NCBI GenBank assembly: GCA_001778055.1
Contig: MFFY01000061.1
Coordinates: forward strand, 515 to 64,514
Length of the DNA stretch: 64,000 nucleotides
Direction of reading: 5' to 3'
Source of the DNA: Candidatus Falkowbacteria bacterium RIFCSPLOWO2_12_FULL_45_13
GTDB taxonomy: Bacteria > Patescibacteriota > Patescibacteriia > Patescibacteriales > GWC2-42-12
Part shown: positions 67-30,668 of the stretch, one piece after another
Layout: every line of letters starts with the position of its first letter
How positions within the stretch are numbered: position 1 is the first letter of the stretch
Program-made: the position numbers and the translations under genes
Notes under the pieces: model-generated
The model's input: the letters and a program-made list of their open reading frames with translations, nothing else
The model's database searches: none
What the model was told of the DNA's origin: nothing

Positions 67-1812
67 TTACATTTTGAGATTTAAATTTAAAACTTTCCTT
101 ATATCCACGATCTTCATCTGTACCGACCGCCGTCCGTTAAATTCGTTAAATTCCAAATAATAAACCGCGTCCACCTGGTCGCCAATCTTAAAGTTTTTGC
201 AGTTTTCCGCCTGGCAAAACCCGACGGCCCATAGATTGCCGAACCTAAATTTTATATGTTGGGCATTGGCGCCCATATTGACCTTATCCATTATTTTGAG
301 ACCGCGGCTTAAAAATTTCGGCCGGTCATTTTCTTCGCCGAAAGGCTCAAACTCTGCCAAAGTTTCTACCAGTTCGCTAGTTATTTCCGCCGTGCTAATT
401 TCCGCTTCAATTAAAATTTTAGGCGCCAATTCCGCGCCGGCCAATTCTTTGGCGGCCATAGCTTTTATTTTTTTAGAAAACTCCCCTAAATCTTCCCGGC
501 TTTTCAAAGTCAAACCGCAAGCCGCGGCGTGGCCGCCGAATTTTTTCAGATGCTGGCTTAATTGTTCAACCGCGCGAATGATATTAAATTCTTCTATGCT
601 CCGACCCGAGCCTTTAATTTCTTTATCAAATTTGGTGATCACCAGAGCCGGACGCGAATAGGCTTCGCAAAGCCTGCCCGCTACCAGCCCCATCACTCCT
701 TCGGGCCAGGGCCGGTTCCCCCGCCCGTCTTTGCCAGGACAAACCACCACTAAAATTTTATCGTCCAGCATTTTTCCCTCTACCATCTTTTGGGCAACGG
801 CGAATATTTCTTCGGTTATTTTTTGCCTGGCCTGATTTTTTTCATTAAGCTTTTGAGCGATTTCTCTAGCCTCGGTTTTGTCCTTGGTAATCAATAATTC
901 ATAGGCCGTATTGGCATGGTCCATCCGGCCGGCGGAATTTAAACGCGGCGCCAGCTGCCAGCCAATATTCCAGGCCTTAATCTCCCTTTCTCCATTTGAA
1001 TTAATTTGCGAAACTTTTATTAATTCATCAAGGCCCGTTCGTTTGCGCTGATTGATTATTTTCAATCCGGCTTTGACTAAAATTCTGTTTTCTCCGACCA
1101 AACTAACCATATCAGCCACCGTGCCGACGGCCACTAAATCTAAAATTTTATCTTCAAGTTTGACTTTTAAATTATCGTCCAATTTAGAGCGCTCAATCAG
1201 GGCTTTGGCGAATTTAAAGGCCACGCCGACTCCGGCTAAAAATTTATCAGGATAATCATCGGCCTTGGGATTGATAATCAAACAATCAGGCCAATCATCT
1301 CGGCTGGCCGGGACCTCGTGATGATCGGTCACGATTATGTCCAAACCCAGGCTGGCCGCGTAGACAACTTCTTTTTTATTGCGAATACCGTTATCGACGG
1401 TAATAATTAATTTAACCGCCTTTTTGGCGAATGCCTCAATCGCTTTTTTATTCAATCCATAACCCTCGCTGATTCTCCCTGGAATATAAACGCTGGCTTT
1501 GGCTTTAAAAGTATTTAGAATTTCAGTTAAAACCGCCGCGGCCGTGACCCCATCGGCGTCATAATCGCCGTAGACGACGATTGGTTCCCGCGCTTTGATG
1601 TGTTTAATCGTCAGGTCCGCGGCCGCCGCCATGTCCTTAAACAAAAATGGATCCGCCAAATCAGCCGAAGAGGAATTAAGAAATAATTTTATGTCTTTTT
1701 TCTGAATCAATCCCCGATTAAAAAAAAGCTGCGCAATAATTTTACCATATTCAATCTGCTGTTTAGCAAATTCAGCCGATAACTTGGGTTTTAGCTGCCA
1801 TTTATTTTGCAT
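67..1812 (-). CDS. recJ: Single-stranded-DNA-specific exonuclease RecJ (DHH/DHHA1 family)
   Basis: 581 aa ORF. The N-terminal half matches RecJ architecture, including VVYGDYDADGVTAAAVL and the DHH-type motif IVTDHHEVP. Domain order is consistent with bacterial RecJ. Confidence 0.85.
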   Translation of the reverse strand: MQNKWQLKPKLSAEFAKQQIEYGKIIAQLFFNRGLIQKKDIKLFLNSSSADLADPFLFKDMAAAADLTIKHIKAREPIVVYGDYDADGVTAAAVLTEILNTFKAKASVYIPGRISEGYGLNKKAIEAFAKKAVKLIITVDNGIRNKKEVVYAASLGLDIIVTDHHEVPASRDDWPDCLIINPKADDYPDKFLAGVGVAFKFAKALIERSKLDDNLKVKLEDKILDLVAVGTVADMVSLVGENRILVKAGLKIINQRKRTGLDELIKVSQINSNGEREIKAWNIGWQLAPRLNSAGRMDHANTAYELLITKDKTEAREIAQKLNEKNQARQKITEEIFAVAQKMVEGKMLDDKILVVVCPGKDGRGNRPWPEGVMGLVAGRLCEAYSRPALVITKFDKEIKGSGRSIEEFNIIRAVEQLSQHLKKFGGHAAACGLTLKSREDLGEFSKKIKAMAAKELAGAELAPKILIEAEISTAEITSELVETLAEFEPFGEENDRPKFLSRGLKIMDKVNMGANAQHIKFRFGNLWAVGFCQAENCKNFKIGDQVDAVYYLEFNEFNGRRSVQMKIVDIRKVLNLNLKM

Positions 1813-1814
1813 AA

Positions 1815-2350
1815 AATAAACTACCTCGCAGCAAGCTGACGAGGTATTAACCCTCGAAAAGTCTTGGCTGATTGGTATGAATTTGTTCGTACTTTAAACC
1901 TTAATTTTGAACATACTGCTTGATAGCCTCTTCGCTTGCTGCTTTACCAACCGTGTTAATGTAATAACCTTTCGTCCAAAATTCACCGCCCCAAAGCAAT
2001 TTTCTGATTTCCGGCTTTACGCGAAATATTTCCCGAGCCGTGATGCTTTTGACTATTTTCGCCAAATTGGTGGGGCTGATCATCGGAACAGACTGAATTA
2101 GAAAATGAACATGGTTTTGGTCAACGCCGATTTCAACAAAATGTATGTCAAACCTTTTTTCAATCTCCAAACAAATCTTCTTAATCTCTTGGTCTGCACC
2201 GGCCACATCCCTAAATACATTTCTGCGATATTTGGCCGGACAAACCAAATGATATAGTAGCAACGACGAATTATGTGATTTTTTTATGTGTTCGGACATG
2301 TTTTCATTCTAACGTACCCGCCCCTCGAGGCAAGCCTCGGGGAAATCTAT
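1815..2350 (-). mobile_element. IS200/IS605-family insertion sequence (tnpA only) with subterminal hairpins
   Basis: A Y1/HUH transposase ORF is flanked by imperfect hairpins: tacctcg...cgaggta at ~1823-1846 and cccctcgagg...cctcgggg at ~2321-2342. This is typical of IS200-like ends. The element abuts the recJ start. Confidence 0.6.
1901..2299 (-). CDS. tnpA: IS200/IS605 family transposase TnpA (Y1 HUH)
   Basis: 132 aa. HUH motif HVHFLIQ, conserved YxxK-type C-terminal region, and a size typical of IS200 TnpA. Confidence 0.85.
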   Translation of the reverse strand: MSEHIKKSHNSSLLLYHLVCPAKYRRNVFRDVAGADQEIKKICLEIEKRFDIHFVEIGVDQNHVHFLIQSVPMISPTNLAKIVKSITAREIFRVKPEIRKLLWGGEFWTKGYYINTVGKAASEEAIKQYVQN

Positions 2351-2582: not shown

Positions 2583-2742
2583 TGCTGTCATTGCGAGGAG
2601 CAAATGTAGCGAAGCGAAACGAGCGAGCGGCAACCTCACGGATGTCTATATTTCACTAAATCTCGCAAAGTTTTATAATGATTATTTTCATCGTTCGTGA
2701 GATTGCTTCGTCGCCTGATTACAGGCTCCTCGCAATGACAAA
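2583..2742. repeat. MITE-like structured repeat, copy A (terminal inverted repeat GTCATTGCGAG / CTCGCAATGAC, internal inverted repeat GCAATCTCACG / CGTGAGATTGC)
   Basis: Shares its termini and an internal AT-rich core (tcactaaatctcg...ttttat.atgattatt...cgttcgtgagattgc) with the copies at 11733-11925 and 33163-33326. Confidence 0.7.
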
Positions 2743-2790: not shown

Positions 2791-4620
2791 TTACCTCTTT
2801 AATAACTTAATAAACGTATCCGATGGAATTTCCACGCTGCCCTTACCGTGAGCCGTCATTTTCTTTTTGCCCTTTTTCTGCTTTTCCAACAATTTGCGTT
2901 TGCGCGTGACGTCGCCGCCGTAAAGCTTGGCCGTAACGTCTTTTTTCATGGCGGAAATTCTCTCGGCCGCGATAATTTTCCCGCCGATAGCCGCCTGCAA
3001 TTTGACCGCGAACATCTGCTTGGGCAAAGTTTCTTTTAAAGTAACCACGACTTCTTTACCGCGCTTAAAGGCTTCATCGCGATAAATTATCATGGCCAGC
3101 GCCTCGATCGCGTCTTCGGCCACCAGGATATCCATTTTTGCCACGTCGGCTTGCCTATAGGCGATAAAATCATAATTAACCGAAGCATAACCAGAGCTGG
3201 CGCTTTTTATTTTATCATAAAAATCCGTCAAAATCGCGACCAAGGGGATTTCATAATGCAAAATCACCCTGGTCTCGTCAATATACTCGGTATTCTTATA
3301 AATACCGCGCTTCTCCTGCACCAAATTCAAAATTGGCCCGATATATTCTTTGGGCGCGATGATATCCAGACTAACCCATGGCTCTTCAATCCTGTCTGTT
3401 TGCGAAGGGTCAGGCAATTTCTGCGGACTGCGGATGATCAGTCCTTCGCCGTTCTTTTTAAAAACCTTGTAGGCGACGCTGGGAACGGTAACGATTAAAT
3501 TTAAATTATATTCTCTTTTCAGGCGCTCTTGAAAAATTTCCAAATGCAATAACCCCAAAAAACCGCATCTGAAGCCAAAACCCAAAGCTTCGGAATTTTC
3601 CGGCTCATAAATTAAAGCGGCATCGTTAAGCTTTAATTTGGCTAGGGCTTCTCTTAATTCCTCAAATTCATTGCCCTCGCGCGGAAAAATTCCGGCAAAA
3701 ACCATTGGCTTTACTTCATCATAGCCTTTTAGCGCTTTGGTGTCATGGCTAAACTTCGTTAGCGCCACTGTGTCGCCCACTCGGGCATAGCTGACGTCTC
3801 TAAAACCGGTAACAATATAGCCAATCTCGCCTGCCTTTAATTCGCCGGTTGACTTATACTCCGGTTTAAACACCCCGGCGTCCAAAGCTTCGCTTTTGGC
3901 CTGGGTGGCAAGCAATACTATTTTATCGCCCTTTTTCACCATGCCGTCGAAGATTCTGACATAAACCACCACGCCGCGGTATTCGTCATAGGTTGAATCA
4001 AAAATCAACGCCCGCAAAGGCCTTTCGTCATAATCTATCCAATCGCCGTTTGATCGAGATTTCGCCATTTTATTATATTTTTCAGCCGGTGCCGGGACGC
4101 GGTCAATTACCGTTTTTAACACTTCAACCACGCCCTGTCCGGTTTTAGCGGAAGCTAAAATAATCTCTTGAGGCTGACAACCTAATAAATGAATAATTTC
4201 TTTTTTTGTTTTTTCTATATTGGCCGCCGGCAAATCAATTTTGTTTATCACCGGAATAACGGCTAAATTCTGCTCTAAGGCTAAGTATAAATTGGCCATG
4301 GTTTGCGCCTGAATGCCCTGGGTCGCGTCCACGAGCATTATGGCGCCCTCAACCGCGGCCAGGCTGCGAGAAACCTCATAGGTAAAATCCACATGTCCCG
4401 GCGTATCAATCAAATTTAGAATGAAGCCCGAGTATTCCATTCTGACCGGCTGCAGCTTAATGGTAATTCCCCTTTCCCGCTCCAGATCCATTTGGTCAAG
4501 CACCTGATTTCTCATTTTTCTTTTCTCAATCGTGCCGGTTATTTCCAGCATGCGGTCAGCCATGGTGGACTTGCCGTGGTCAATATGGGCAATGATGCAA
4601 AAATTTCTTATCTTGGACAT
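2791..4620 (-). CDS. lepA: Elongation factor 4 (LepA)
   Basis: 609 aa. N-terminal GTPase motif IRNFCIIAHIDHGKSTMADRML, the LepA-specific C-terminal domain, and a typical length. Confidence 0.95.
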   Translation of the reverse strand: MSKIRNFCIIAHIDHGKSTMADRMLEITGTIEKRKMRNQVLDQMDLERERGITIKLQPVRMEYSGFILNLIDTPGHVDFTYEVSRSLAAVEGAIMLVDATQGIQAQTMANLYLALEQNLAVIPVINKIDLPAANIEKTKKEIIHLLGCQPQEIILASAKTGQGVVEVLKTVIDRVPAPAEKYNKMAKSRSNGDWIDYDERPLRALIFDSTYDEYRGVVVYVRIFDGMVKKGDKIVLLATQAKSEALDAGVFKPEYKSTGELKAGEIGYIVTGFRDVSYARVGDTVALTKFSHDTKALKGYDEVKPMVFAGIFPREGNEFEELREALAKLKLNDAALIYEPENSEALGFGFRCGFLGLLHLEIFQERLKREYNLNLIVTVPSVAYKVFKKNGEGLIIRSPQKLPDPSQTDRIEEPWVSLDIIAPKEYIGPILNLVQEKRGIYKNTEYIDETRVILHYEIPLVAILTDFYDKIKSASSGYASVNYDFIAYRQADVAKMDILVAEDAIEALAMIIYRDEAFKRGKEVVVTLKETLPKQMFAVKLQAAIGGKIIAAERISAMKKDVTAKLYGGDVTRKRKLLEKQKKGKKKMTAHGKGSVEIPSDTFIKLLKR

Positions 4621-8453: not shown

Positions 8454-10049
8454 CTAAATTAGACTCCGGCCCGTCATCTCGGCCGACTTTTCCAAATTCA
8501 TCAGTTTCAAAATTGTCGGCGCCACATCGGATAATATGCCTTGCGGCTGAACCAGGCTCAAATCTCCGCCGGGCGCGTCTCCTAAAGACAGGCTCTTGCC
8601 TTCATAGTCTTGGCCAACAATTATGAACGGCACGGGGTTGGCCGAATGCTCTTTGTCTATCTGGCCGGTTTGCATATTAAACAAAACCTCGGCGTTGCCG
8701 TGATCGGCGGTAATAAATATCAAACCGGATTTGCTTAAGACAGATTTAACAATTCTGCCCAGGCACTTATCAACCGTTTCAACGGCTTTAGCCGTGGCTT
8801 TTAAATTACCGGTATGGCCGACCATATCGGCGTTGGCGTAATTAACCAAAATAAAGTCATAACTGTCTTGTTCAACCGCCTCAACAACTTTGTCGGTTAT
8901 TTTAACGGCCGACATCTCGGGTTGTTCGTCATAACTGGAAACCGCCGGTGATTGAATTAACACATGGTCTTCGTCGATAGACTTGCTTTCTCGGCCGCCG
9001 TTAAAAAAATAAGTCACATGAGCGTATTTTTCGGTTTCCGCGATCCTTAACTGTTTCAGGCCGGCTTTAGCTAAAATTTCACCGAAAGTATGCCTGATAA
9101 TTTCCTTGGGAAAAACCGTTTCCATGGGTAAACTAATTTCATATTCGGAAAAGCCAGCAAAAAATATTTTCAAGTATTTTTCCCGCTTAAATTTTTCAAA
9201 ACCGGGCAAGACAAAAGCCTTAGCCAGCTGGCGCGCCCGGTCCGGCCGGTAATTAAAAAATATTACCACGTCGCCGTCTTCAATCATGGCCACAGGTTTA
9301 TTATTTTTAACAATTACCGTGGGCATAAACTCTTCGTCGTAAATCTTCTTTTTATAGCTGGCTTCAACCGCTTTCCCGGCCGACTCGTGTTTCTCGCCCA
9401 GGCCTTGCGTTATGGCTTGATACGACTTAGCCGTTCTACCCCAATGATTATCGCGGTCCATGGCATAAAATCGGCCGTGGACCGTGGCAATTTTGCCGAC
9501 AGTCCCTTTAAGAGATCTTTCGATTTCTTGAATAAAATTAATTCCGGAATTGAACGGCGTGTCCCGGCCGTCTAAAATCGCGTGAATATAAAAATTTTTC
9601 ACCTTCTTCTCTTTGGCCATTTCAATCAAGGCTTGAAGATGCTCCAGCGAAGAATGAACCGCTCCGGAGGAAACCAAACCGATAAAATGCAACTTTGAAT
9701 TATGATTTTCCGCCTGTTCAATGGCCTTTAACAAAACTTTATTCTTGTAAAAACTGCGGTCGGCGATCATTTTGTTGATTCTGGGCAAGCTCTGATATAA
9801 AATCCTCCCCAGCCCTAAATTAAGATGGCCGACTTCGCTATTGCCCGATTCGCCCCAAGGCAAGCCCACGCCCTCGCCCGAAGCCACTAATGTGGCGGAC
9901 GGGTACTTGGTTATATAGTTATTGATATTCGGGGTATTGGCCTGGCTAATGGCGTTGCCGGAATAAGGAGTGGTAATGCCCCAGCCATCCAAGACGATCA
10001 GCACGACTGGTTTTGGGCGTAAATTTTGTTCTTTATTTACCATAGACAT
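8454..10049 (-). CDS. gpmI: 2,3-bisphosphoglycerate-independent phosphoglycerate mutase (iPGM), paralog 1
   Basis: 531 aa. VVLIVLDGWG, GNSEVGHLNLGLGR and ADMVGHTG motifs place it in the alkaline-phosphatase superfamily iPGM group. Confidence 0.9.
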   Translation of the reverse strand: MSMVNKEQNLRPKPVVLIVLDGWGITTPYSGNAISQANTPNINNYITKYPSATLVASGEGVGLPWGESGNSEVGHLNLGLGRILYQSLPRINKMIADRSFYKNKVLLKAIEQAENHNSKLHFIGLVSSGAVHSSLEHLQALIEMAKEKKVKNFYIHAILDGRDTPFNSGINFIQEIERSLKGTVGKIATVHGRFYAMDRDNHWGRTAKSYQAITQGLGEKHESAGKAVEASYKKKIYDEEFMPTVIVKNNKPVAMIEDGDVVIFFNYRPDRARQLAKAFVLPGFEKFKREKYLKIFFAGFSEYEISLPMETVFPKEIIRHTFGEILAKAGLKQLRIAETEKYAHVTYFFNGGRESKSIDEDHVLIQSPAVSSYDEQPEMSAVKITDKVVEAVEQDSYDFILVNYANADMVGHTGNLKATAKAVETVDKCLGRIVKSVLSKSGLIFITADHGNAEVLFNMQTGQIDKEHSANPVPFIIVGQDYEGKSLSLGDAPGGDLSLVQPQGILSDVAPTILKLMNLEKSAEMTGRSLI

Positions 10050-10073: not shown

Positions 10074-11714
10074 TTATTTTATTAGATTCTTGCCCGTCAT
10101 TTCTTTGGGTTTTTTAATATTTAACAACTCCAGTATGGTCGGCGCGATATCGCCTAAAACTCCGCCATTTCTTAATTTGACTTTATGGCCAAGGTTTTTG
10201 TTGATTAATACAAAGGGTACCAGATTAGTTGAATGCTCGGTATTGATTTCACCGGTTTTTAAATTAATCATCTCCTCGATATTGCCATGATCAGCCGTCG
10301 CTAAAACTGTGCCGCCGACGTTCAAATAAGCCTTAACAATTTCGCCCAGACACTTATCAACCCCATGGCAGCATTTTATCGCGGCGTCCAGATTGCCCGT
10401 GTGGCCGACCATGTCGGGCGCGGCAAAATTCAAAACCGTAAAGTCATATTTCCAGTCTAAACCCTTTTTCTGGCCAATATAACCCCCCTGCTCCCCTTTC
10501 AAAAGGGGGTGAGGGGGGGTTAAATTGTTGACCACTGCCTCGGTCAACTCCGCCGAACTCATCGTCGGCGTCTGATCATACGATCTGACGTTGGGCGAAG
10601 GCACAAGGCGCCGCCCTTCCCTCGCGATCGGATCGGCATAGCCGCCGTTAAAAAAATAAGTCACATGAGCGTATTTTTCCGATTCGGCGATATATAATTG
10701 CGACAAACCTTTTAGCGCCTGCGGCAAAGTCTGTTTTAAATCGACGCTGGGATAAGCGGTTAAAATACCGTCTAAGTCCGGTCCAAAATCAGTCATGGCC
10801 ACGAACAACAAATTTTTTAATACTTTTTTTCTTAAAAAAGAACCGGGATTTAATCTATCAAAATCTTTTTGCACGAAAACCTTGGCGAATTGCCTGGCCC
10901 GATCCGATCTTAAATTAAAAAAGATAACGCCGTCGCCGTTGCCGATCCGGGGTAAGGGCCGGCCATTTCTGGTGATCACATAGGGCTCAATAAATTCGTC
11001 GCTTTCGCCGCGGTTATAACTTTCCATGATCGCGGCTTCCGGGCTGGCGGCTTTCCGGCCCAAGCCGCTCGTTAAAGCATCATAAGCTTTTTCGGTTCTC
11101 GACCAGGTTTTTTTTCTGTCCATGGCGTAATATCGGCCGACGACGGAAGCGATGGCTTCGCCGTTTTTAAAAACTTTTTGGATATCTTCGACCAATTTCA
11201 AAGAGGCATACCTAGGCGAATCCCGGCCGTCGGTGAATAAATGCAAATAAACTTCCTTGACTTTAGTTATTTTAACCAAAGACAGCAGAGCCAGCAAATG
11301 GTCCGGGTCGCTATGCGCGCTCATGCCATTGGAGATCATGCCCATTAGATGAAGCTTGGATTTATTCTTTTTGACCTGGCGGATCGCCTCGATAAAACCG
11401 GCATTTTTAAAAAAAGTCCCGTTATTAACGCTTTTAGAAATTTTAACTACGTCTTGCTCGACAATTCTGCCGGCGCCAATATTCATATGCCCGGCTTCAG
11501 AATTACCCGATTGGCTCGGCGGCAGGCCCACGGCCTTGCCGGAAGCATTGATTAAAGTATTGGGAAATTTTTTAATCAAGCCGTCCATAACCGCGGTATT
11601 GGCCAAGGTGATGGCATTACCCTGGCTCGGTTCAGCCATGCCCCAGCCGTCTAGGATGACCAGAATCATGGGTAAAACATTTTTAGCTGGCTTATTTAAC
11701 TTTTCTGGTTTCAT
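10074..11714 (-). CDS. gpmI: 2,3-bisphosphoglycerate-independent phosphoglycerate mutase (iPGM), paralog 2 (tandem duplicate, carries an in-frame palindromic insertion)
   Basis: 546 aa. ILVILDGWG, GNSEAGHMNIGAGR and PDMVGHTG motifs. The segment NNLTPPHPLLKGEQGGYIGQKKGLDWK has no counterpart in paralog 1 and is encoded by the palindromic element at 10483-10520. Confidence 0.9.
   Translation of the reverse strand: MKPEKLNKPAKNVLPMILVILDGWGMAEPSQGNAITLANTAVMDGLIKKFPNTLINASGKAVGLPPSQSGNSEAGHMNIGAGRIVEQDVVKISKSVNNGTFFKNAGFIEAIRQVKKNKSKLHLMGMISNGMSAHSDPDHLLALLSLVKITKVKEVYLHLFTDGRDSPRYASLKLVEDIQKVFKNGEAIASVVGRYYAMDRKKTWSRTEKAYDALTSGLGRKAASPEAAIMESYNRGESDEFIEPYVITRNGRPLPRIGNGDGVIFFNLRSDRARQFAKVFVQKDFDRLNPGSFLRKKVLKNLLFVAMTDFGPDLDGILTAYPSVDLKQTLPQALKGLSQLYIAESEKYAHVTYFFNGGYADPIAREGRRLVPSPNVRSYDQTPTMSSAELTEAVVNNLTPPHPLLKGEQGGYIGQKKGLDWKYDFTVLNFAAPDMVGHTGNLDAAIKCCHGVDKCLGEIVKAYLNVGGTVLATADHGNIEEMINLKTGEINTEHSTNLVPFVLINKNLGHKVKLRNGGVLGDIAPTILELLNIKKPKEMTGKNLIK
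10483..10520. repeat. In-frame palindromic element (C5-TGACAAGG-AGGG family) inside the gpmI paralog 2 coding sequence
   Basis: cccccctgctcccctttcaaaagggggtgagggggggt is a near-palindrome. Related copies occur in eno, gap and rarA and at two intergenic sites. Confidence 0.7.
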
Positions 11715-11732
11715 ATATTAAATACACAAAAT

Positions 11733-11925
11733 GACAGTCTTCCTGTCATTGCGAGCCCCGACGCTCTGGGTGGGGCGAAGCAATCTCACGTATGACTATA
11801 CCTCACTAAATCTCGTAATAATTTTATTATGATTATTCTTTACCGTTCGAGATTGCCCGCCCGACTGAACGTCGTTCGGGCGGGCTTCGTCGCTGGCGCT
11901 CCTCGCAATGACAGAAACTTTACAT
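11733..11925. repeat. MITE-like structured repeat, copy B (between eno and gpmI)
   Basis: Termini gtcattgcgag...ctcgcaatgac, internal gcaatctcacg...cg.gagattgc, and the perfect hairpin gcccgcccga...cgggcgggc. Confidence 0.7.
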
Positions 11926-11934
11926 TTTTAACTG

Positions 11935-13251
11935 TCATTTTAATTTTTGATTTTTGCATTTTAAATTTTCTTCAATCTCCATCAGCCTGTTATATTTCGC
12001 CAGCCTTTCTCCCCGCGACAGCGACCCGGCCTTAATGTAATCAGCCCCGACCGCCACGGCTAAATCAGCGATAAAGTCATCCGTAGTTTCGCCCGAGCGA
12101 TGCGAAACAATAATTTTATAATTATGCTTCTTGGCCAGTTTTACGCAGTCAACCGTTTCCGACAGGGTCCCGACCTGATTGGGTTTTATTAAAATAGCGT
12201 TAGCGGCGTTTTCTTTCAAGCCTCGCCTCAAGCGCTCCGGATTGGTGACGAACAAATCATCGCCGACCAGCATTACGTCCCGGCCAAGCTCTTTATTTAA
12301 TTTTTGCCAGCCGGCCCAATCGTCTTCAGCTAAACCGTCTTCAAGGTAAATTATCGGATACTTCCTAAACCATTCGTAATATAAGCCGGCTAAAGTAGCC
12401 GCGGTGTAACTGGCGCGATCCAGCTTAAAAACATACCTGCCGTTTCTCTGATTATAAAGTTGAGATGAGCCTACATCAATGCCTAAGGCTAAATCTGCCC
12501 CGGGTTTATAACCAGCTTTAATTGCGGCCGCCATAATTAATTCAATCGCCTGGATGCTGGAACTGATATCCGGCGCGTAGCCGCCTTCATTGCCCACATC
12601 CGTGTCATAGCCAGCTCTTTTTAAAACATCCCCTAAAGCATGAAAAATCTCCGCGCCCATTCTAACTTGTTCGGCAAAACTTCTTCTCCCCCCCCTGACA
12701 AGGAGGGCTGGGGGTGTTAAATAAGCCAGGGGAATTATCATAAATTCCTGAAAATCCAGGTTGGTATCGGCGTGCTTGCCGCCGTTAAAAATATTAAAAC
12801 ATGGAACAGGTAATTGGAAATTGGAAATTGGAAATTGGAAATTATTAGAGATATATTCATATAACTCCAGACCAGAAGCCAAGGCGCCGGCGCGGGCGCA
12901 AGCGAGCGACACGGGCAGGATCGCATTAGCGCCTAATTTACTTTTATTTTTTGTACCATCTAATTTTATCATGATATCATCAATCTCCGCCTGCTTGGTT
13001 ACTCCAGCTCCGATTAGCTTAGGCGCGATTTTGCTTTCAATATTTTTAATGGCATGCAAAACCCCCAAACCGCCGTATCTTTTAGCATCATTGTCCCGCA
13101 GTTCCACGGCTTCATGCGCGCCCGTAGACGCGCCCGCAGGCGCGCTGGCTTTTGCTTTAACGCCATTATCCAATAAAACCGTGGCTTCCACAGTGGGATT
13201 GCCGCGCGAATCTAAAATCTCACGAGTCGTTATTTTTTTTATTTTAGGCAT
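11935..13251 (-). CDS. eno: Enolase (phosphopyruvate hydratase)
   Basis: 438 aa. TTREILDSRGNPTVEA, SAPAGASTGAHEAVELRD, SHRSGETTD and the full enolase domain order. It also contains an in-frame 12-aa insertion and a 7-bp tandem repeat. Confidence 0.95.
   Translation of the reverse strand: MPKIKKITTREILDSRGNPTVEATVLLDNGVKAKASAPAGASTGAHEAVELRDNDAKRYGGLGVLHAIKNIESKIAPKLIGAGVTKQAEIDDIMIKLDGTKNKSKLGANAILPVSLACARAGALASGLELYEYISNNFQFPISNFQLPVPCFNIFNGGKHADTNLDFQEFMIIPLAYLTPPALLVRGGRRSFAEQVRMGAEIFHALGDVLKRAGYDTDVGNEGGYAPDISSSIQAIELIMAAAIKAGYKPGADLALGIDVGSSQLYNQRNGRYVFKLDRASYTAATLAGLYYEWFRKYPIIYLEDGLAEDDWAGWQKLNKELGRDVMLVGDDLFVTNPERLRRGLKENAANAILIKPNQVGTLSETVDCVKLAKKHNYKIIVSHRSGETTDDFIADLAVAVGADYIKAGSLSRGERLAKYNRLMEIEENLKCKNQKLK
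12686..12716. repeat. In-frame palindromic element (same family as 10483-10520) inside eno
   Basis: ctcccccccctgacaaggagggctgggggtg. It encodes the extra YLTPPALLVRGGRR relative to the canonical EFMIQPVGAKT...IRMG loop of enolase. Confidence 0.7.
12808..12844. repeat. Coding microsatellite: about 4.5 copies of a 7-bp unit (GGAAATT / AATTGGA) inside eno
   Basis: ggtaattggaaattggaaattggaaattggaaatta. It encodes NNFQFPISNFQ in the variable loop preceding the conserved LPVP. Confidence 0.85.
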
Positions 13252-15940: not shown

Positions 15941-17095
15941 CTACTTTATGGCCTCCAGCCGCAACCTGACTTCCCGCTCTAAGTCATTGCGTAAAACAAC
16001 CAAATCAATCACTTCTCCGGCCTCGCGATCCTGAATAACATCAGCCAAATCATTGTCTTTATTTAAGAAAACATCGTCAACGGAAATAATGACATCGCCT
16101 TCGCGCAAGCCCGCTTTATCGGCCGGACTATCCTTTCTGACCGCCGGCGCCTTGGAGCTTCTGTGAATAATCACGCCTTTCTGCCAACGGCTATTTTGGC
16201 CGTCAACTTCGGCCAGCTCGTCCAAAACGATATAGTTAATCCCCAAATAAATCCTAGCGCTGGTTTTATTTTTAAATAAACTTTTAACCGCGCCGCCAAA
16301 ATGATTGATCGGCTCAATTTCTCCCCGATCGTCAGCCAGTCCCAAGGCCTCGCCGGCCAAATTAAAGATAATTGAGCCTTGAAATTCCGGCGGCAGCTTG
16401 TCGTTTAATAAGAGCTTCTCCGAAAAACTGTCGCTCGATTTCACCAGGCCGCCGGTCCGGCTAAAACCGGCCACCGCGGAAACGAGGCTTGAGCCCAGCC
16501 AATTAACGGCCACGGCTAATTGTCCGCTTTTTACCCGTTGGTCTTCCGCGAATTTTCTGACCGGTAAATCCCGAGCCTGAACATGGATAAAATTAAACTT
16601 GGTCAGATTATCGACCACGGCTTTGTCAATCTGGTATATTTTTTTATCCTTGGTAATGACCGCGTAATCGTTATAGCTTTTATCCAGGGCTTGGCTCGTA
16701 ACAATCCAGCCATCCGAGGTTATAATAAATCCCTGACCGCTCGGTTCGTTAATTTTATAAAAATTATCTAAAATAAAAAGCTGGTTTGATTTAACGGGTT
16801 TCTGCTTTTTATAAATTCCCACTAAACTGCTCGAAACCGAATTAATGGTCTCGTCTACTTTAGCGTCCTGCTGCACAATCACGTTCTTGGGATTGCTTAT
16901 CACCAGGCCTTGGTCGCCGTATTGGCCGTTGGAAAAATCCAGATTGCCAAAAGACGAAAAACCGTACCAAGAATCAGCCAGATAAGCTTGGGCCGTTATT
17001 TCCCCGACCAAGCCGCCGCCCAGCCCAAAAATCAGAGATATTATAATCAAGACGATTAAATTGTGTTTTTTAAAAAAATCTTTGACTCTTCTCAT
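15941..17095 (-). CDS. PDZ-domain periplasmic protein (HtrA-like architecture, catalytic triad not evident)
   Basis: 384 aa. N-terminal TM, C-terminal PDZ-like GLREGDVIISVDDVFLNKDNDLADVIQDREAGEVIDLVVLRND. No clear GNSGG serine motif. Confidence 0.5.
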   Translation of the reverse strand: MRRVKDFFKKHNLIVLIIISLIFGLGGGLVGEITAQAYLADSWYGFSSFGNLDFSNGQYGDQGLVISNPKNVIVQQDAKVDETINSVSSSLVGIYKKQKPVKSNQLFILDNFYKINEPSGQGFIITSDGWIVTSQALDKSYNDYAVITKDKKIYQIDKAVVDNLTKFNFIHVQARDLPVRKFAEDQRVKSGQLAVAVNWLGSSLVSAVAGFSRTGGLVKSSDSFSEKLLLNDKLPPEFQGSIIFNLAGEALGLADDRGEIEPINHFGGAVKSLFKNKTSARIYLGINYIVLDELAEVDGQNSRWQKGVIIHRSSKAPAVRKDSPADKAGLREGDVIISVDDVFLNKDNDLADVIQDREAGEVIDLVVLRNDLEREVRLRLEAIK

Positions 17096-17281
17096 AAATT
17101 CCTTAATGCCGCCTTGGCTAAATATTTATTCGCGGCCTACGCGCATATAACGCATGGATTATGCTAGAGCCTGTCTCAAAAATAGCTTTTAGTCATTTTT
17201 GAGATAGACTCTAGTTAATGATTTTAATTTTGCATTTTATTGATTCGTAATATTTGCAGCTGATTCGTAGATTTGCGGGGC

Positions 17282-18043
17282 CTACATCCACTTCGCCGTG
17301 GACAAGACTAATAATAAGCTGATTGATCCCAAAATTAAATACATTTTTACCTTGGCCGCGTCCAATTTTAGAAGTAAATGATTTTTAACCAGGCCGATAA
17401 CCACATAATAGCAAATCGCCAAGCTCAAGCCGGAAATATTATAATTAAACGGCAAAAAGGAAATTGACCAAAATAATTCAACCAAAATCAGGCAACTGAT
17501 TAAAATATAAGGCAAACTGGGCATCAGTTCTATCTTGTTGGCCCAAATTATCTGATAAACCAGCAAACTTGTCAAGCTTATCATAATGAGCACCAGCCAA
17601 GAAATCGGCAAGTTCAAAAAGGACGCCAGGCCGTAAACCGTGGCCGCCAGCAAAAAAAAGGTCAGCCAGTTGATATATGAGGAGATATTTTCTATGCTAA
17701 AAACTTCATAGGCCAAAGGGTTAAGCAAATAATAATAAACATACCGTAAATATAAATATAAAAAAACCAAATTAAAAAAATACAGTAGTTGAATAATAAG
17801 CTTAAAACTTAAAAAAACCGAATAGCTCATCACCGCCACGGACATAACGGCCGGCAAGATTAAGTAATTCCACCAGCGCTTATCAATTTCGCTGGTTTGG
17901 CTAAATTGCCAAACCGTGAAAAAAATCAGTAAATTTACCAAAACTGCGGCTACGTAAATCAGTTTCGGAGACAAATAATACATTTCTTCAAGTAAAAAAA
18001 CCAACGCCGGAATTATTAAGGGCAATAAACGATTAAGCTTCAT
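17282..18043 (-). CDS. Hypothetical polytopic membrane protein
   Basis: 253 aa, highly hydrophobic with many predicted TM helices. No recognisable family. Confidence 0.5.
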   Translation of the reverse strand: MKLNRLLPLIIPALVFLLEEMYYLSPKLIYVAAVLVNLLIFFTVWQFSQTSEIDKRWWNYLILPAVMSVAVMSYSVFLSFKLIIQLLYFFNLVFLYLYLRYVYYYLLNPLAYEVFSIENISSYINWLTFFLLAATVYGLASFLNLPISWLVLIMISLTSLLVYQIIWANKIELMPSLPYILISCLILVELFWSISFLPFNYNISGLSLAICYYVVIGLVKNHLLLKLDAAKVKMYLILGSISLLLVLSTAKWM

Positions 18044-18463: not shown

Positions 18464-18629
18464 ATAGAATAATTTAATAGTACTTACGCGCTCTCCAATA
18501 TTATCTAAAGTTAATAAAAATTGTTAATTTATGCCAACCAACTGTAATTACCCGCAAATCTACAAATCAGCTACGAATACTACCAATGCTATTCGTGATA
18601 TTCGTAGCTGATTTGTAGATTTGCGGGAG

Positions 18630-25771: not shown

Positions 25772-27340
25772 TTATTTCACGTAAAATTCTTTTTTTATTT
25801 CTTCATCATCTTCCATTTTTTTCTCTTCAATTTTTTCTTTGGCTTTTTCCCGTAATTCTTTTAAATCCATTTTATTTAGCTCCAAGCTCCGCGTCTCCAA
25901 ATATTTTTGATCATTCAATTTTTGATCTTCAATCACTTCCGACAGCAAGACGTCCAAAATCGCCCCAATTTTCGGCCCAGGCGCTATACCCAACAGTTTC
26001 ATCAAATCATCGCCATTGATGGCGAGCATTTTTACCGACACCGCATCATGCCTGACCTTTTCCATCATATATTCCAGATGCCTTAACTTATACGGCTTGG
26101 CTTTGGGCACGCCCGAGCCCAGACGATCGGCGACGCGCAGGGCAATCAAATCGGCCAGATTCTCTTCGCCGACTTTTCTAACCAGGCGCCTGACCGAGCT
26201 CTCGGTCACTTCGCCCACATTATAATAAAACATATGGTTTCTGACCAAGCTGGTCACTTTTTCAATATCCTGGCCGGCAAACTTTAACCGGCGCATGATT
26301 TTTTCCGTCACCCTGGCGCCGATGATGTCATGGTTATAAAAAGTCGCCTCCTGCCCCGAACTGATCCGCTTGGTTTGCGGCTTGGCAATGTCATGCAAAA
26401 GCGAGGCCAGTTTAACCTGCCACTTTTTACTGGGAGTATGCTTCAGAGATAGCACACTATGGTTAAAAACCGTATAAATATGATGCCGATTCTGCGCCAC
26501 ACCCACGCCGCGCTCCAGTTCCGGCATCAGATATTGAAGCAATTTAAATTCATGAAGCATCATGATGCCTTCATAGGCTTTATCCGTTTCTAAAATTTTA
26601 ATAAGCTCGTCGCGCAAGCGTTCGCCGGAAATAAATTTAATACTACCGGCCATTTTAACTATGCCTCTCTCGGTTTTCGGCTCAAGCATAAATCCTAATT
26701 GGCAGGCCAGGCGCACCGCGCGCATCATGCGCAAAGCGTCCTCTTTAAACCGGTCTTCCGGCTCGCCCACGGCGCGGATTACTTTCTTTTTCAAATCCTT
26801 CGCGCCGCCAAACAAATCAATAAGCTCGTAACTCGCATCTCGTAACTCATAACTCTTTTTATCCCGCATTTGAGTTACGGGTTGTGAGTTGTGAGTTATG
26901 AGCCGCAACGCCATGGCATTAACCGTAAAATCCCTGCGGCTCAAATCTTTTTCCAGACTGTCCTCAAACCGTACCTGGTCCGGATGCCGGCGGTCGCTAT
27001 AACCTTGTTCAGAACGATAAGTTGTTACCTCGACAACGTCTTCCGCTTCTCCGTTAGCCGGCTTTACCGGCACTAAAACCGTACCAAAGTCATTTTTATA
27101 TTTGCCGTCAGGAAAAATTTCCAAAATTTTTTCCGGCCGCGCGTTGGTGGTTACGTCCCAATCTTTCGGCTGCCGTGCCATTAACAAATCACGCACGCAA
27201 CCGCCCACGATATAGGCTTCAAAACCGGCTTGCTCCAGTTTTTCCACGATATTTTTAATATAGTCGGGAGTTTGCATTATAGCAAAAACGGCACTATCAT
27301 TAGCGCCTAAAATTATTATGATTACAGCTAAAATATACAA
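25772..27340 (-). CDS. cca: CCA-adding tRNA nucleotidyltransferase / poly(A) polymerase family protein with C-terminal HD domain
   Basis: 522 aa. GGCVRDLLM and DWD (NTase motifs), RRDFTVNAMAL, and a C-terminal HD region. It carries an in-frame palindromic insertion. Confidence 0.85.
   Translation of the reverse strand: MYILAVIIIILGANDSAVFAIMQTPDYIKNIVEKLEQAGFEAYIVGGCVRDLLMARQPKDWDVTTNARPEKILEIFPDGKYKNDFGTVLVPVKPANGEAEDVVEVTTYRSEQGYSDRRHPDQVRFEDSLEKDLSRRDFTVNAMALRLITHNSQPVTQMRDKKSYELRDASYELIDLFGGAKDLKKKVIRAVGEPEDRFKEDALRMMRAVRLACQLGFMLEPKTERGIVKMAGSIKFISGERLRDELIKILETDKAYEGIMMLHEFKLLQYLMPELERGVGVAQNRHHIYTVFNHSVLSLKHTPSKKWQVKLASLLHDIAKPQTKRISSGQEATFYNHDIIGARVTEKIMRRLKFAGQDIEKVTSLVRNHMFYYNVGEVTESSVRRLVRKVGEENLADLIALRVADRLGSGVPKAKPYKLRHLEYMMEKVRHDAVSVKMLAINGDDLMKLLGIAPGPKIGAILDVLLSEVIEDQKLNDQKYLETRSLELNKMDLKELREKAKEKIEEKKMEDDEEIKKEFYVK
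26825..26902. repeat. In-frame palindromic element (GAGTTATGAG / CTCATAACTC family) inside cca
   Basis: ctcgtaactcgcatctcgtaactcataactc...gagttacgggttgtgagttgtgagttatgag. It encodes RLITHNSQPVTQMRDKKSYELRDASYEL between the conserved NAMAL and IDLFGG. An intergenic copy lies at 49264-49356. Confidence 0.7.
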
Positions 27341-29501: not shown

Positions 29502-29588
29502 AATCAGTCATGTTTTTGCAAATTCATAATTGCCTAACAAATCAACGAATTAACTACGAATATCACGAATAATATAATTGAAAAATAA

Positions 29589-30668
29589 TTATTTTAGTAT
29601 TTGTATATTCGTTGTAAAATTCGTTGATTCGTTAGCCTGGTTGATTTGTGGGTAGACATTCTTTAAAAAGCTTCTGATCGGCACAGGCACCGAGCAGCCC
29701 AGGGCGCAAACCGAAGTATCGGCCAGATTGTCCAATAAATTATTAAACAAGACCCAGTCGGTTTTTCCCGCCAGAAAAACCTCGCCCAATCTAAAAGTTC
29801 CTTCGCGGCAGGGCGCGCATTGCCCGCAAGATTCGCTCATAAAAAAATTAAGCCAAGACTTAATGATTTTTTTATAATTATTCTTTGTGATGCTGTAAAT
29901 AGTGATGGAACCCGCGCCCTGAACCGATCTTTTTAACTGTCGGCTATTTAAAACTTCGCCGGCCGCGCCGCCGCCACATTGGACAAAAAAAGGAAATTTA
30001 GGATAATTTTTTGTCGCTTTTAATATTTTCTCAATGCTAAAACTTTCCGGCAAATCATAAACTCCCTCCCGCGGGCAATCGCCGGTCAGGCTGTAAAATC
30101 TTTTATTTTCATATCGATTGGCTTCAACCAGGCTGACATTATAAAAAGTTTCAACGTTATTCACTAAGGTGGGGCAGCCCCACAGGCCGGCGGTGGTGGG
30201 AAACGGCGGTTTTAACCTAGGCTCGACCCTTCGACCTTCAATGGCGTTTAAAATCGCGCTTTCCTCGCCGCCGATATAACCGGCGTTCGGCGGCTTAACG
30301 AAGATTTCAATAACAGAAGATTTCAACAGAACGGTTAATTTTTTTTTCAATTTTTTATTATAACCGTAGTTTAAAAATAAATAACCTTTTACAACTCCCT
30401 TGTCCGCCGAGGCTTTAGCGTAGGCGGATAAAAAATCAACGGCGATTTTCATGCCGTTAATCACCTGATCCGCGTGATGCTCTAAAATATAATCATCTTT
30501 GATCACGCCCGGTTCGCCTTCAGCCGCGTTACAGACCACATAGCATTTTTTTTCGCCTGCTTTATCCGCCAGAGCCTGAGCGACGGCAGACCACTTTTTC
30601 GCCACCGGAAAGCAGGCGCCACCGCGCCCGACCAGACCGGCTAGTTTTATTTTTTCCAGGATATCCAT
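29589..30668 (-). CDS. NuoF-like NADH-binding FMN flavoprotein subunit (hydrogenase HydB/HndC-like, short form)
   Basis: 359 aa. GLVGRGGACFPVAKKW, YVVCNAAEGEPG, GYIGGEESAILNAIEGRRVEPRLKPPFP, PTLVNNVETF, ESCGQCAPCREG. It lacks the N-terminal NuoE-like and C-terminal ferredoxin extensions of full HydB. Confidence 0.8.
   Translation of the reverse strand: MDILEKIKLAGLVGRGGACFPVAKKWSAVAQALADKAGEKKCYVVCNAAEGEPGVIKDDYILEHHADQVINGMKIAVDFLSAYAKASADKGVVKGYLFLNYGYNKKLKKKLTVLLKSSVIEIFVKPPNAGYIGGEESAILNAIEGRRVEPRLKPPFPTTAGLWGCPTLVNNVETFYNVSLVEANRYENKRFYSLTGDCPREGVYDLPESFSIEKILKATKNYPKFPFFVQCGGGAAGEVLNSRQLKRSVQGAGSITIYSITKNNYKKIIKSWLNFFMSESCGQCAPCREGTFRLGEVFLAGKTDWVLFNNLLDNLADTSVCALGCSVPVPIRSFLKNVYPQINQANESTNFTTNIQILK

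Follow-up and report, generated by a model that had tools for sequence, protein, structure and literature searches.

A 64,000-nucleotide stretch of a Candidatus Falkowbacteria genome (Patescibacteria/CPR), here called the window, contains three similar sequences lying between genes. They raise the question of whether such sequences are mobile elements or structured RNAs and, if they are mobile, what could move them. The initial annotation had described a three-copy, MITE-like family with nested inverted repeats. Three elements of 155-170 nt were recovered, with limits slightly narrower than those first drawn, most of all for copy 2 (Table 1). Each consists of two inverted copies of one module separated by a spacer of about 65 nt, and the module runs from a YGTC tag and ATTGCGAG through a small variable hairpin to GAAGCAAT and a tail. 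The tag is TGTC and the tail CTC in all window copies.

The repeats were accepted as real because their counts lie far above chance expectation. With up to one mismatch, GTCATTGCGAG has six matches in the window, which form three inverted pairs (0.70 expected; none of 100 shuffles reached six), and GCAATCTCACG occurs five times, each within one of the three elements (0.68 expected). Terminal inverted repeats of 11 bp had been claimed; these termini are exact in copies 1 and 2 and carry one mismatch each in copy 3 (GTCATTGCGAT / GTCGCAATGAC). The conserved ends are Y + GTCATTGCGAG ... CTCGCAATGAC + R, one base beyond the earlier limits, which gives the exact bounds in Table 1, and all three copies have terminal inverted repeats of 12 nt. 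The outermost Y...R pair covaries (71% Watson-Crick, against 45% in shuffles), no complementarity was found outside it, and the element ends are sharp. The internal 11-bp inverted repeat was upheld by the count of GCAATCTCACG and needed correction in two places, since the left inner repeat of copy 1 is the variant GCAACCTCACG and the right inner repeat of copy 2 is 2 nt short (CGAGATTGC). GC-rich hairpins were confirmed at five positions within the three elements, as was the AT-rich core common to copies 1 and 2 (82% identity across 56 nt). The spacer of copy 3 is unrelated to the other two. No fourth copy was found within the window. A GTCATT...AATGAC pair at 15983-16093 was rejected as a chance match without inner boxes, and the GC-rich hairpin of copy 2 was rejected as a separate mobile mini-repeat, with no other copies in the window.

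Table 1. Positions of the three elements, their parts and the adjoining genes in the window.
Feature	Position	Strand	Description
Copy 1	2586-2740	minus	ORF-less, 155 nt; fold z = -7.4
Copy 1, upstream arm (minus-strand reading)	2696-2740	minus	TGTCATTGCGAG, hairpin GCCTG-taatc-CAGGC, then GACGAAGCAATCTCACG
Copy 1, GC-rich hairpin	2713-2726		
Copy 1, spacer core	2641-2688	minus	GCGAGATTTAGTGAAATATAG on minus strand
Copy 1, downstream arm	2586-2640	minus	Inner box degenerate (GCAACC for GCAATC); long degenerate insert
31-aa membrane ORF	2481-2577	minus	Adjoins copy 1
lepA	2791-4620	minus	Adjoins copy 1
Copy 2	11744-11913	minus	ORF-less, 170 nt; fold z = -6.1
Copy 2, arm hairpin	11756-11775		CCCCGACGCTCTGGGTGGGG
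Copy 2, spacer core	11791-11840	minus	Homologous to copy 1 core
Copy 2, GC-rich hairpin	11856-11884		9-bp perfect stem (CCCGCCCGA / TCGGGCGGG), inserted within the inner box of one arm
gpmI	10074-11714	minus	Adjoins copy 2
eno	11935-13251	minus	Adjoins copy 2
Copy 3	33164-33324		161 nt; same arms, variable hairpins
Copy 3, hairpin	33180-33206		
Copy 3, spacer	33226-33280		
Copy 3, hairpin	33295-33313		7-bp stem
PSP1-domain gene	32244-33152	minus	Adjoins copy 3
tsf	33342-34193	minus	Adjoins copy 3

Genes were annotated with Pfam. All three elements are intercistronic, with co-directional flanking genes on the minus strand, in agreement with the operon positions first proposed for copies 2 (eno to gpmI) and 3 (tsf to the PSP1-domain gene). 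Copy 1 ends 8 nt upstream of the ATG of the membrane ORF, and copy 3 lies 11 nt upstream of that of the PSP1-domain gene. The same placement was found at 13 of 14 junctions, with 2-15 nt between the element end and the start codon that follows, the exception being copy 2 (29 nt). Copy 2 was invariant across five strain-level contigs.

The family is not limited to three copies, as the initial annotation had it; the module is pan-bacterial. Its pattern was found at no fewer than 120 loci in each of the viral, genome and metagenome collections and, among the matches listed, in more than ten phyla, with isolate genomes of Bradyrhizobium, Sphingomonas, Pedobacter, Helicobacter and Sporomusa. One Novosphingobium replicon holds the module in at least 40 places. 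Among curated phage genomes it was carried only by Helicobacter canis prophage-like records, so that the many IMG/VR matches should not be read as proof of phage spread. Full-text literature matches to the terminal and module sequences were unrelated primers or nothing.

The tag is Y-G-T-C in at least 95% of modules. Across 506 modules, G occupies position -1 in 96%, position -2 is split between C (50%) and T (45%), and conservation goes no further. Tails in 440 modules were mostly CCA (162), CTC (139) or CCC (45). The module body starts with ATT and ends with AAT, with an ATTGC/GCAAT pair for which a covarying variant, ATTCT/AGAAT, exists; the next three positions (GAG/GAA) are unpaired, and either a GC-GNA-GC mini-hairpin or a larger hairpin forms the loop. 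Dimers carry their tags outside, with spacers mostly of 15-70 nt, the full range being about 5 to more than 200 nt, and their total length is mostly 60-120 nt, some reaching 150-200 nt as in the window copies. Most head-to-head dimers elsewhere have spacers of 20-30 nt that are untraceable to an ORF. Inserts differ between the two arms in 137 of 149 dimers.

This anatomy was compared with that of CGTC-tagged REPs, which in their 2013 survey are described as units with a terminal CGTC tag that is unpaired and may also read TGTC or CCTC, an 8-9-bp stem starting with A-T and T-A pairs, a 4-5-nt loop and a short 3' tail, mostly CCA (or CTC), with no known transposase (Di Nocera, De Gregorio and Rocco, 2013, BMC Genomics 14:522; PMC3733652). 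According to the same text they occur mostly as head-to-head dimers, tags outside each pair, with 20-100-nt spacers and often unlike partners. The window family shows the tag, a CCA/CTC-type tail and head-to-head dimers, and has no associated transposase gene. In both groups the outer CGTC/TGTC tag is unpaired, the body begins and ends with AT, the 3-nt tail is mostly CCA, the dimer partners often differ, and the units are intergenic and spread over many phyla. The window arms fit the published description in tag, tail and dimer arrangement, and would be one family of this pan-bacterial superfamily, arranged as head-to-head dimers. The present body differs from the clean published stem and loop in that its stem has 5 bp (ATTGC/GCAAT), with a conserved internal loop (GAG/GAA) and a GC-GNA-GC mini-hairpin or a larger hairpin that is replaceable, and the module is present also in Patescibacteria and several phyla not listed in 2013. 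Classical CGTC units turned up at the module loci as by-catch. Neisseria dRS3 and Rickettsia RPE-4 and RPE-6, listed in the survey as CGTC-1 and CGTC-4 members (PMC3733652), share the tag and tail logic and differ in stem sequence; an NCBIfam scan of 10 translated frames of the present elements gave no RPE domain match.

In nine independent loci the same arms enclose a gene for a GIY-YIG nuclease of 95-100 aa, at the position of the spacer in the window copies. Most loci were ascertained through their arms, and both arms enclose the ORF in five of these (L339, L341, L295, L183 and L256, where an internal deletion in L256 removes part of the ORF); of five loci retrieved protein-first, four were enclosed (L375, L378, L388, which is from a Falkowbacteria genome, and L389). 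The gene is present in only about 10 of about 360 module-containing loci, and none was found within the 64-kb window. The arm hairpin of copy 2, CCCCGACGCTCTGGGTGGGG, has a near-identical counterpart, CCCCGACGCTTTGGTCGGGG, in an arm of the gene-bearing element at L389. Translated arm was also present in five of seven database homologues with N-terminally over-extended gene calls. Four of these contain the canonical words SLRG or EAIS, and the fifth (..AWQS..) was read as a putative GTGGCAATC arm variant. The CGTC units flanking alphaproteobacterial-type GIY-YIG genes (L376 and L377) belong to another family and are arranged differently. Three elements sit at pheS or pheT start regions. A link between these REPs and a GIY-YIG gene is not reported in the 2013 survey (PMC3733652).

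The enclosed protein matched Pfam GIY-YIG (PF01541, 8.9e-15), and Y10, Y21, R31, H35, E57 and E69 were invariant among 50 homologues. A sequence search against the PDB gave no match, and a fold search was needed. The AF2 model (pLDDT 91.9) had 1ZG2 (UPF0213) as its best fold, followed by Slx1 and UvrC-N. The protein is described here as a putative GIY-YIG nuclease with a predicted UPF0213/Slx1-like fold.

The spacers of the gene-less copies were aligned with this ORF. On the minus strand, the last 55 nt or so of the ORF align with the AT-rich core that copies 1 and 2 share (alignment A8). In copy 1 the core matches the last 50 nt or so (...WRDLSE..stop) with z = 3.8 (2 of 500 shuffles), and scores against ORF 3' ends were z = 5.6 for the spacer of locus L304 (0 of 500 shuffles) and z = 3.1 for that of L299 (1 of 500). 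Scores taken alone were not significant for L247 and copy 3 (z = 1.3 each) or for copy 2 (z = 1.5), so that the ORF homology of copy 2 rests on its relatives. A plus-strand alignment of spacers with the ORF 5' end was discarded, being unsupported by an unbiased local-alignment test. By these alignments copies 1 and 2 were shown to keep an apparent relic of the ORF 3' end. Five type-A copies from at least four organisms share one deletion architecture, which implies spread after gene loss. Since part of the GIY-YIG ORF survives in the type-A ORF-less spacers, at least these would derive from ORF-bearing elements, and not the reverse.

Orthologous short intergenic sites in related genomes were patchily filled or empty. 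Between eno and gpmI, four lineages each carry a different element and five others carry none; one of the genomes lacking an element there bears the family elsewhere (L248 and L163), and in L248 eno and gpmI are just 9 nt apart, the element being absent. The lepA and ackA-murJ sites are likewise patchy. These data bear on the structured-RNA reading of the initial annotation, taken here to cover functional RNAs acting in cis on processing, stability or translation, as well as protein-binding DNA sites, kept by selection and not by mobility. Each window copy has co-directional genes on both sides and is probably transcribed, the family's side hairpins stay hairpins while their sequence changes, the junctions lie close to start codons, and the same sites are filled in several lineages. 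Folds are also very stable (z -6 to -12), which follows from the elements being DNA palindromes. Against selection for such a function, filled sites hold unrelated versions and close relatives have no element, the spacer occurs in opposite orientations at one orthologous site, and single modules show no bias relative to transcription (54 same-strand, 49 opposite). The distribution over intergenic classes equals background, there is no tie to any gene family, and the copies have no terminator-like T-run, a scan for terminators inside the three copies being negative. Rfam 15 matched only three tRNAs in the window at the gathering threshold, and permissive scans gave chance-level matches only. 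A sigma-70-like promoter in the copy 1 spacer, antisense strand, was a single match not above shuffle expectation. We consider a selected function of this kind quite unlikely; co-transcription and some effect on operon mRNA may nevertheless occur.

Classical MITEs arise by deletion from an insertion sequence that has matching terminal inverted repeats and a DDE transposase, and they move by cut-and-paste. Such elements would share the terminal inverted repeats, small size and intergenic sites seen here, and one Patescibacteria contig (L168) has an IS256/Mutator-like transposase between two such dimers. That transposase is a single case with its own inverted repeats, and L168 was rejected as an autonomous parent, being one IS256-like insertion. 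Direct repeats abutting 168 dimers averaged 0.37 nt, against 0.33 nt in the control, so no target-site duplication was detected. No transposase family recurred among neighbouring genes; clustering of neighbour ORFs at 240 loci yielded nothing but groups of phage structural genes from related contigs. Within a dimer the two arms mostly bear unlike inserts, as counted above, their ends are CGTC-tagged REP-type modules, and no insertion sequence with YGTCATTGCGAG-module ends was found, the parent that was found encoding the GIY-YIG nuclease. Long-range inverted module pairs (0.3-3 kb) were also considered as autonomous elements, and those in L091, L005 and L217 were judged coincidental. The classical MITE reading is thus very improbable.

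The absence of a target-site duplication is expected of Y1-type insertion, as in REPIN-RAYT systems, which reportedly combine doublets of GTAG-tagged REPs with a single-copy Y1 transposase. The elements could accordingly be orphan CGTC REP dimers of the REPIN kind, mobilised as ssDNA by a trans-acting HUH/Y1 enzyme (RAYT or IS200-like TnpA) or immobile, with the GIY-YIG genes as secondary invaders of the spacers. Their head-to-head architecture agrees with this, most dimers have no ORF, and copy 1 has an IS200-type Y1 transposase gene 290 nt away. Both systems have inverted doublets of a tagged hairpin module, able to form a long hairpin, together with non-autonomous spread and persistence in intergenic DNA. 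The tag here is YGTC rather than GTAG, however, and the module sequence is common across phyla, whereas REPIN modules are lineage-specific. No RAYT/Y1 gene is associated: 2.6 Mb of sequence around modules yielded no Y1 homologue, and Y1_Tnp was not among the families matched by at least two of 142 nearest neighbour genes. The 2013 survey likewise reports no Y1 gene flanked by CGTC units (PMC3733652). The Y1 gene in the window has its own, unrelated hairpins, is of IS200/IS605 type rather than RAYT-like by its PDB matches, and is missing from the orthologous site in relatives. The candidate partner found here, a GIY-YIG nuclease, is encoded within the doublet and is not REP-flanked. The GIY-YIG gene could instead invade pre-existing REP dimers, but the ORF pieces retained in type-A spacers speak against a secondary role for it in at least these copies, and the REPIN-kind account was judged unlikely.

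The explanation that we favour, and regard as probable, is that the three window elements are ORF-less, non-autonomous derivatives of a mobile GIY-YIG mini-element of about 400 nt. The non-autonomous mobile nature first proposed is in keeping with the gene-bearing form with the same ends, the 3' gene relic in copies 1 and 2 and the shared deletion architecture. In the full element, two inverted arms flank the gene for the 95-100 aa UPF0213/Slx1-like nuclease, the tail of each arm pairing with that of the opposite arm. Single-stranded or as an extruded cruciform, the arms may fold into a four-way branched structure, and Slx1-type enzymes act on substrates of this class. The nuclease would act on arms in trans, and in this way the window copies may have been mobilised. 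The element would then be copied by repair or recombination to new sites, mostly short intergenic spacers just upstream of start codons, and the window copies would be passively co-transcribed inside their operons.

Free-standing GIY-YIG homing endonuclease genes (I-TevI, Seg) and UPF0213/Slx1 proteins have a likewise small catalytic domain with the same Y, Y, R, H and E residues, and the homing genes resemble the present element in selfish intergenic insertion and a possible preference for conserved targets. Unlike the I-TevI and Seg types, the protein here has about 100 aa and lacks a separate DNA-binding domain, and its gene is bounded by structured inverted arms and yields ORF-less copies that spread. 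The nearest folds, in contrast to I-TevI, are structure-specific nucleases (1ZG2, Slx1).

For the window the message is modest: the three elements would be selfish insertions in operons, rather than genes or known regulatory RNAs. More generally, CGTC-tagged REPs are described as widespread and as having no dedicated mobilising enzyme (PMC3733652). A nuclease gene exactly within dimers, decay intermediates and spread ORF-less copies together provide a concrete, testable candidate, a GIY-YIG protein of about 100 aa that would act on a structured arm of about 50 nt. We propose tentatively, at somewhat less than even confidence, that orphan CGTC-tagged REPs are the ends and ORF-less progeny of unrecognised minimal autonomous elements, each a gene for a Slx1-like nuclease of about 100 aa in a palindromic, cruciform-forming REP dimer, that home into short spacers upstream of start codons, sometimes those of pheS or pheT; the window copies would be non-autonomous members in a CPR genome. 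If this is true, it would account for many spurious small ORFs (..SLRGAKRRSN.., ..LAMT) and for breaks in metagenome assemblies. It would also explain why a 26-nt module is nearly identical from Bradyrhizobium to Patescibacteria, and a nuclease-based mini-element would join the short list of prokaryotic transposition and homing systems.

Allowing at most one mismatch, the word GTCATTGCGAG was found six times in the 64-kb window, as three inverted pairs (chance expectation 0.70; six attained in none of 100 shuffles), and all five occurrences of GCAATCTCACG fell within the same three elements (copies 1 to 3). The whole window was searched and contained no further copy; a look-alike pair at 15983-16093 was attributed to chance. 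In each element, one module is present twice, in inverted orientation, with a spacer of ~65 nt in between. Read inward, a module consists of Y, GTC, ATTGCGAG, a variable insert, GAAGCAAT, and C plus a tail, the tails of paired modules being complementary (TCTCACG/CGTGAGA in the window copies). The cores of copies 1 and 2 were 82% identical. All three copies folded more stably than shuffled sequence (z of -7.4, -6.1 and -11.9, respectively), as is expected of any DNA palindrome. A sigma-70-like TTCACT-16-TATAAT match lies in the copy 1 spacer; the number of such matches around this spacer was not above shuffle expectation. A weak terminator-like hairpin immediately precedes gpmI: flanking CTGTCATT, which is followed by TTGTGTATTT, pairs with the final 8 nt of copy 2. 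A similar word lies on the upstream side of copy 2.

Positions of the repeat elements and of features near them (window coordinates unless a retrieved locus, L plus number, is named)
Feature	Position	Strand	Remarks
Copy 1	2586-2740		Flanked by lepA and the 31-aa membrane ORF, both minus strand
Copy 2	11744-11913		Flanked by eno and gpmI, both minus strand
Copy 3	33164-33324		Flanked by tsf and a PSP1-domain gene, both minus strand
Sigma-70-like match	2652-2679	plus	Antisense to operon
Terminator-like hairpin	11730-11750	minus	
AATGACAG word	11932-11940 region		
Y1 transposase gene	1901-2299	minus	IS200/IS605-type, 132 aa; between mini-ORF and recJ
Hairpins of Y1 gene	about 1815-1900 and 2300-2345		CCTCG/CGAGG
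Mini-ORF	2481-2577	minus	31 aa, hydrophobic, MKKKPLQKILWVIISVMVIFSMLAWTVGGFF; directly downstream of lepA
Phosphoglycerate mutase paralogues	8454-10049, 10074-11714	minus	Tandem, cofactor-independent
Second palindrome family	2365-2478, 17229-17287, 18551-18627, 29533-29633, 53082-53120		
Third hairpin family	26821-26902, 49310-49359		GAGTTAYGAGTTGTGAGTT-type heptamer-like words and complements
IS256/Mutator-like transposase gene, L168	556-1838		Patescibacteria
GIY-YIG mini-element, L183	about 2240-2920	reverse	At pheT; uncultured Planctomycetota
GIY-YIG mini-element, L378	1427-1845		8 nt upstream of pheT; CPR contig
GIY-YIG mini-element, L256	about 1157-1460		2 nt upstream of pheS; different CPR contig from L378

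The mini-ORF is too short for ordinary ORF lists and is conserved, with orthologues in L249, L371 and L372. The tandem phosphoglycerate mutase pair was kept in all relatives examined. Palindromes of the second family are long, near-perfect and intergenic, carry ATTCGTAG/ATTTGTAG-like words (e.g. CCCGCAAATCTACAAATCAGCTACGAATA...TATTCGTAGCTGATTTGTAGATTTGCGGG) and are unrelated to the three copies.

Across 506 modules from other sequences, conservation started sharply at Y-G. A set of 152 non-redundant dimers was used to evaluate pairing. Covariation was seen in the outermost Y...R pair (T-A in 55, C-G in 53), which was paired in 71% against 45% in shuffles, and tail positions 2-3 were paired in 83-86% against 45-48%; no complementarity was found at the next two flanking positions outside the Y...R pair, and variants of the GAA triplet (GTG, GCG) showed no compensation in the opposite arm. 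The most frequent insert, CGNAGC, forms a GC-GNA-GC mini-hairpin with the preceding G. Most of the longer inserts were hairpins, unrelated to one another in sequence (mean folding energy -6.8 against -4.0 kcal/mol shuffled; median z -1.5), and the arms of one dimer differed in insert in 137 of 149 dimers. The GC-rich hairpins described in the initial annotation are present and are such replaceable inserts.

The elements had been taken for a family of three copies, which is far too narrow: the pattern GTCATTGCGAG-N5-35-GAAGCAATC matched at least 120 loci in IMG/VR contigs and at least 120 in one-genome-per-species contigs, its narrower TCTCACG form matched at least 120 loci in metagenomes, and many phyla were represented. 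Hosts among the matches listed were Alpha-, Gamma- and Deltaproteobacteria, Chloroflexi, Bacteroidota, Cyanobacteria, Planctomycetota, Patescibacteria, Zixibacteria, Latescibacterota, Melainabacteria, Helicobacter and Sporomusa, several of them isolate genomes. A 1.76-Mb Novosphingobium replicon carried at least 40 module places, none annotated. Among curated phage genomes the module was found only in Helicobacter canis prophage-like records, so matches in viral contigs are to be read with caution. One phage-like IMG/VR contig of 6.6 kb (L036) has 13 module ends, between nearly all of its genes, and related contigs (L004, L040, L058, L061, L116) likewise have many modules between genes.

CGTC-tagged REPs, with four named families, are defined in Di Nocera et al., 2013 (PMC3733652) by a CGTC or TGTC tag that is unpaired, a stem beginning AT, a short loop and a tail that is mostly CCA; they are described as mostly forming head-to-head dimers, in which the tags are external, spacers measure 20-100 nt and the partners are often unlike, and as occurring in five phyla with no dedicated transposase. 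Compared with this definition, the present module agrees in tag, tail and dimer arrangement, but its body is interrupted: a stem of 5 bp is followed by an internal loop with conserved GAG/GAA and then by a mini-hairpin. Classical CGTC units (e.g. TGTC-ATTCCCGC-GAAG-GCGGGAAT-CCAG) and a covarying module variant (ATTCTGAG...GAAGAAT) were by-catch in module loci. The window elements belong to a REP-type repeat family of pan-bacterial distribution. The NCBIfam RPE models gave no match to them. A structured-RNA reading, also put forward in the initial annotation, was unsupported: the Rfam scan suggested there returned nothing for the elements, and single modules showed no preference for either orientation with respect to transcription (54 same-strand, 49 opposite).

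The enolase of the window was 100% identical to a partial enolase of a Candidatus Falkowbacteria MAG, which places the window in a CPR/Patescibacteria genome. Site occupancy was compared in nine related genomes with synteny kept and enolase about 77-81% identical. The eno-gpmI site was occupied in the window, L247, L249 and L371 and empty in L248 (9 nt from stop to ATG), L370, L372, L373 and L374. The lepA to mini-ORF site was occupied in the window and L249 and empty in L371 and L372; the ackA-murJ site was occupied in L247 and L374 and empty in the window, L248 and L370. Different elements were found in the four lineages occupied at eno-gpmI: the window has the AT-rich type-A spacer, L247 the same type in reversed orientation, L249 an unrelated spacer, and L371 a different CGTC family (textbook dimer TGTC-ATTGCGGC-loop-GCCGCAAT-CCAG). 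The MAG that contains L248 also contains L163, which carries two dimers elsewhere. Copy 2 was unchanged in all strain-level contigs. At dimers, neither the target-site duplication looked for at the suggestion of the initial annotation (0.37 against 0.33 nt in the control) nor flank palindromy (0.43 against 0.45) was detected. Dimers were in co-directional, divergent and convergent spacers in 66/19/15% against a background of 68/18/14%.

Clustering of neighbouring ORFs for a partner gene yielded only phage structural genes, from related contigs, and a Pfam scan of the 142 nearest neighbour genes yielded 218 families, none in more than three genes. The Y1 transposase of the window was rejected as partner: the hairpins on both sides of its gene are its own and are unrelated to the modules. 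No homologue of it was found in 2.6 Mb around modules, and its gene is missing at the same junction in L371 and L372 and is therefore a lineage-specific insertion. The IS256/Mutator-like transposase of L168, a single case with its own inverted repeats, was also rejected; its gene sits between two dimers, fused to their inner ends, and the element may be an IS targeting these palindromes. GIY-YIG was seen twice in the Pfam scan and was therefore pursued by motif search and then HMM search.

At four loci (L339, L341, L295, L183) a 95-105-aa GIY-YIG ORF occupies exactly the spacer position of the window copies. Its ATG follows the left arm after 4-16 nt, its stop precedes the right arm, and the TGA of CGTGAGATTGC frequently serves as that stop. 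L256, in which the two arms enclose an ORF that has lost an internal part, is a decay intermediate, and L261 and L343 are partial cases. Five loci were retrieved by protein similarity alone, independent of arms, and four had the same arms: a viral contig (L375), L378-387 (protein P0230, between pheS and pheT), L388 (P0159, a Candidatus Falkowbacteria genome) and L389-398 (P0209). The fifth (L376/377) has an alphaproteobacterial-type protein with flanking CGTC-1-type units. N-termini were over-extended in 7 of 120 database homologues, and in five we read the extension as translated arm; four contain the canonical words SLRG or EAIS, and the fifth (..AWQS..) we interpret as the arm variant GTGGCAATC. 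The nuclease family comprises >8000 proteins at E ≤1e-5, most on contigs <2 kb, as repeats are. Most module loci were ascertained via arms, and the gene was present in only about 10 of ~360; most dimers elsewhere have short spacers without a traceable ORF relic. The gene was absent from the 64-kb window. A literature search of partial coverage returned no report of a connection between GIY-YIG genes and bacterial REPs or MITEs.

L389 and copy 2 have nearly equal arm hairpins (CCCCGACGCTTTGGTCGGGG and CCCCGACGCTCTGGGTGGGG, respectively). Read on the minus strand, the type-A cores of copies 1 and 2, like those of L247, L304 and L299, are colinear with the last ~55 nt and stop of the GIY-YIG ORF and directly abut the right arm; AGTGGCGAGATTTAATGAG of L304 aligns with AAGTGGCGAGATTTAAGTGAAG of the ORF, encoding ..KWRDLSE... 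Spacers were scored against the last 60 nt of six GIY-YIG ORFs, with 500 shuffles each. The z values (shuffles attaining the score) were 5.6 for L304 (0), 3.8 for copy 1 (2), 3.1 for L299 (1), 1.5 for copy 2 (45), 1.3 for L247 (56) and 1.3 for copy 3 (70). Homology among the five type-A spacers is clear, so the assignment as ORF relic extends to copy 2. A match of the cores to the 5' end of the ORF, on the opposite strand, found no support. All five type-A copies, from different organisms and different loci, have a common deletion architecture; most likely, therefore, the deletion occurred once and the ORF-less form spread afterwards, which is the signature of a non-autonomous element. The GIY-YIG gene might instead be a secondary invader of REP dimers; for this subfamily, this is countered by the ORF relic that the type-A copies retain. 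In this lineage the window elements are, on balance, probably ORF-less derivatives of the GIY-YIG mini-element. The earlier idea of MITE-like elements therefore holds as to non-autonomy, given the ORF-less spread and the type-A relic, and fails as to kind, since the elements are not MITEs of the DDE type.

The protein matches Pfam GIY-YIG, with Tyr, Tyr, Arg, His and Glu invariant in 50 homologues. Its AlphaFold model (pLDDT 91.9) was closest to UPF0213 protein BH0048 (1ZG2), then Slx1, then the UvrC N-domain; PDB entry titles describe Slx1 as a nuclease acting on branched DNA. In extruded or single-stranded form, a palindromic dimer carrying two side hairpins would be a four-way junction. Judging from fold and dimer shape, the putative nuclease may recognise this structure or the adjoining tag, and the element would be copied by break-induced repair, with no fixed target duplication.

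The downstream end of the element was 2-15 nt before the next start codon at 13 of 14 junctions read (copy 1, 8 nt; copy 3, 11; L249, 8 and 15; L247, 11; L374, 9; L372, 10; L370, 9; L378, 8; L388, 2; L389, 4; L341, 9; L256, 2), the exception being copy 2 with 29 nt; this is a hint of targeting, from small numbers and with the short intergenic spacers in these genomes as a possible part of the explanation. Three ORF-bearing elements (L183, L378, L256) are at pheS or pheT starts on unrelated contigs, a possible preference for the pheST operon in a small sample. Direct copies of the pheT 5' end, start codon included, lie on both sides of the L183 element as a perfect 112-nt duplication, and the element looks like a recent insertion that preserved pheT. 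The part that deserves follow-up is the candidate link between the orphan CGTC REPs and a small Slx1-like nuclease.
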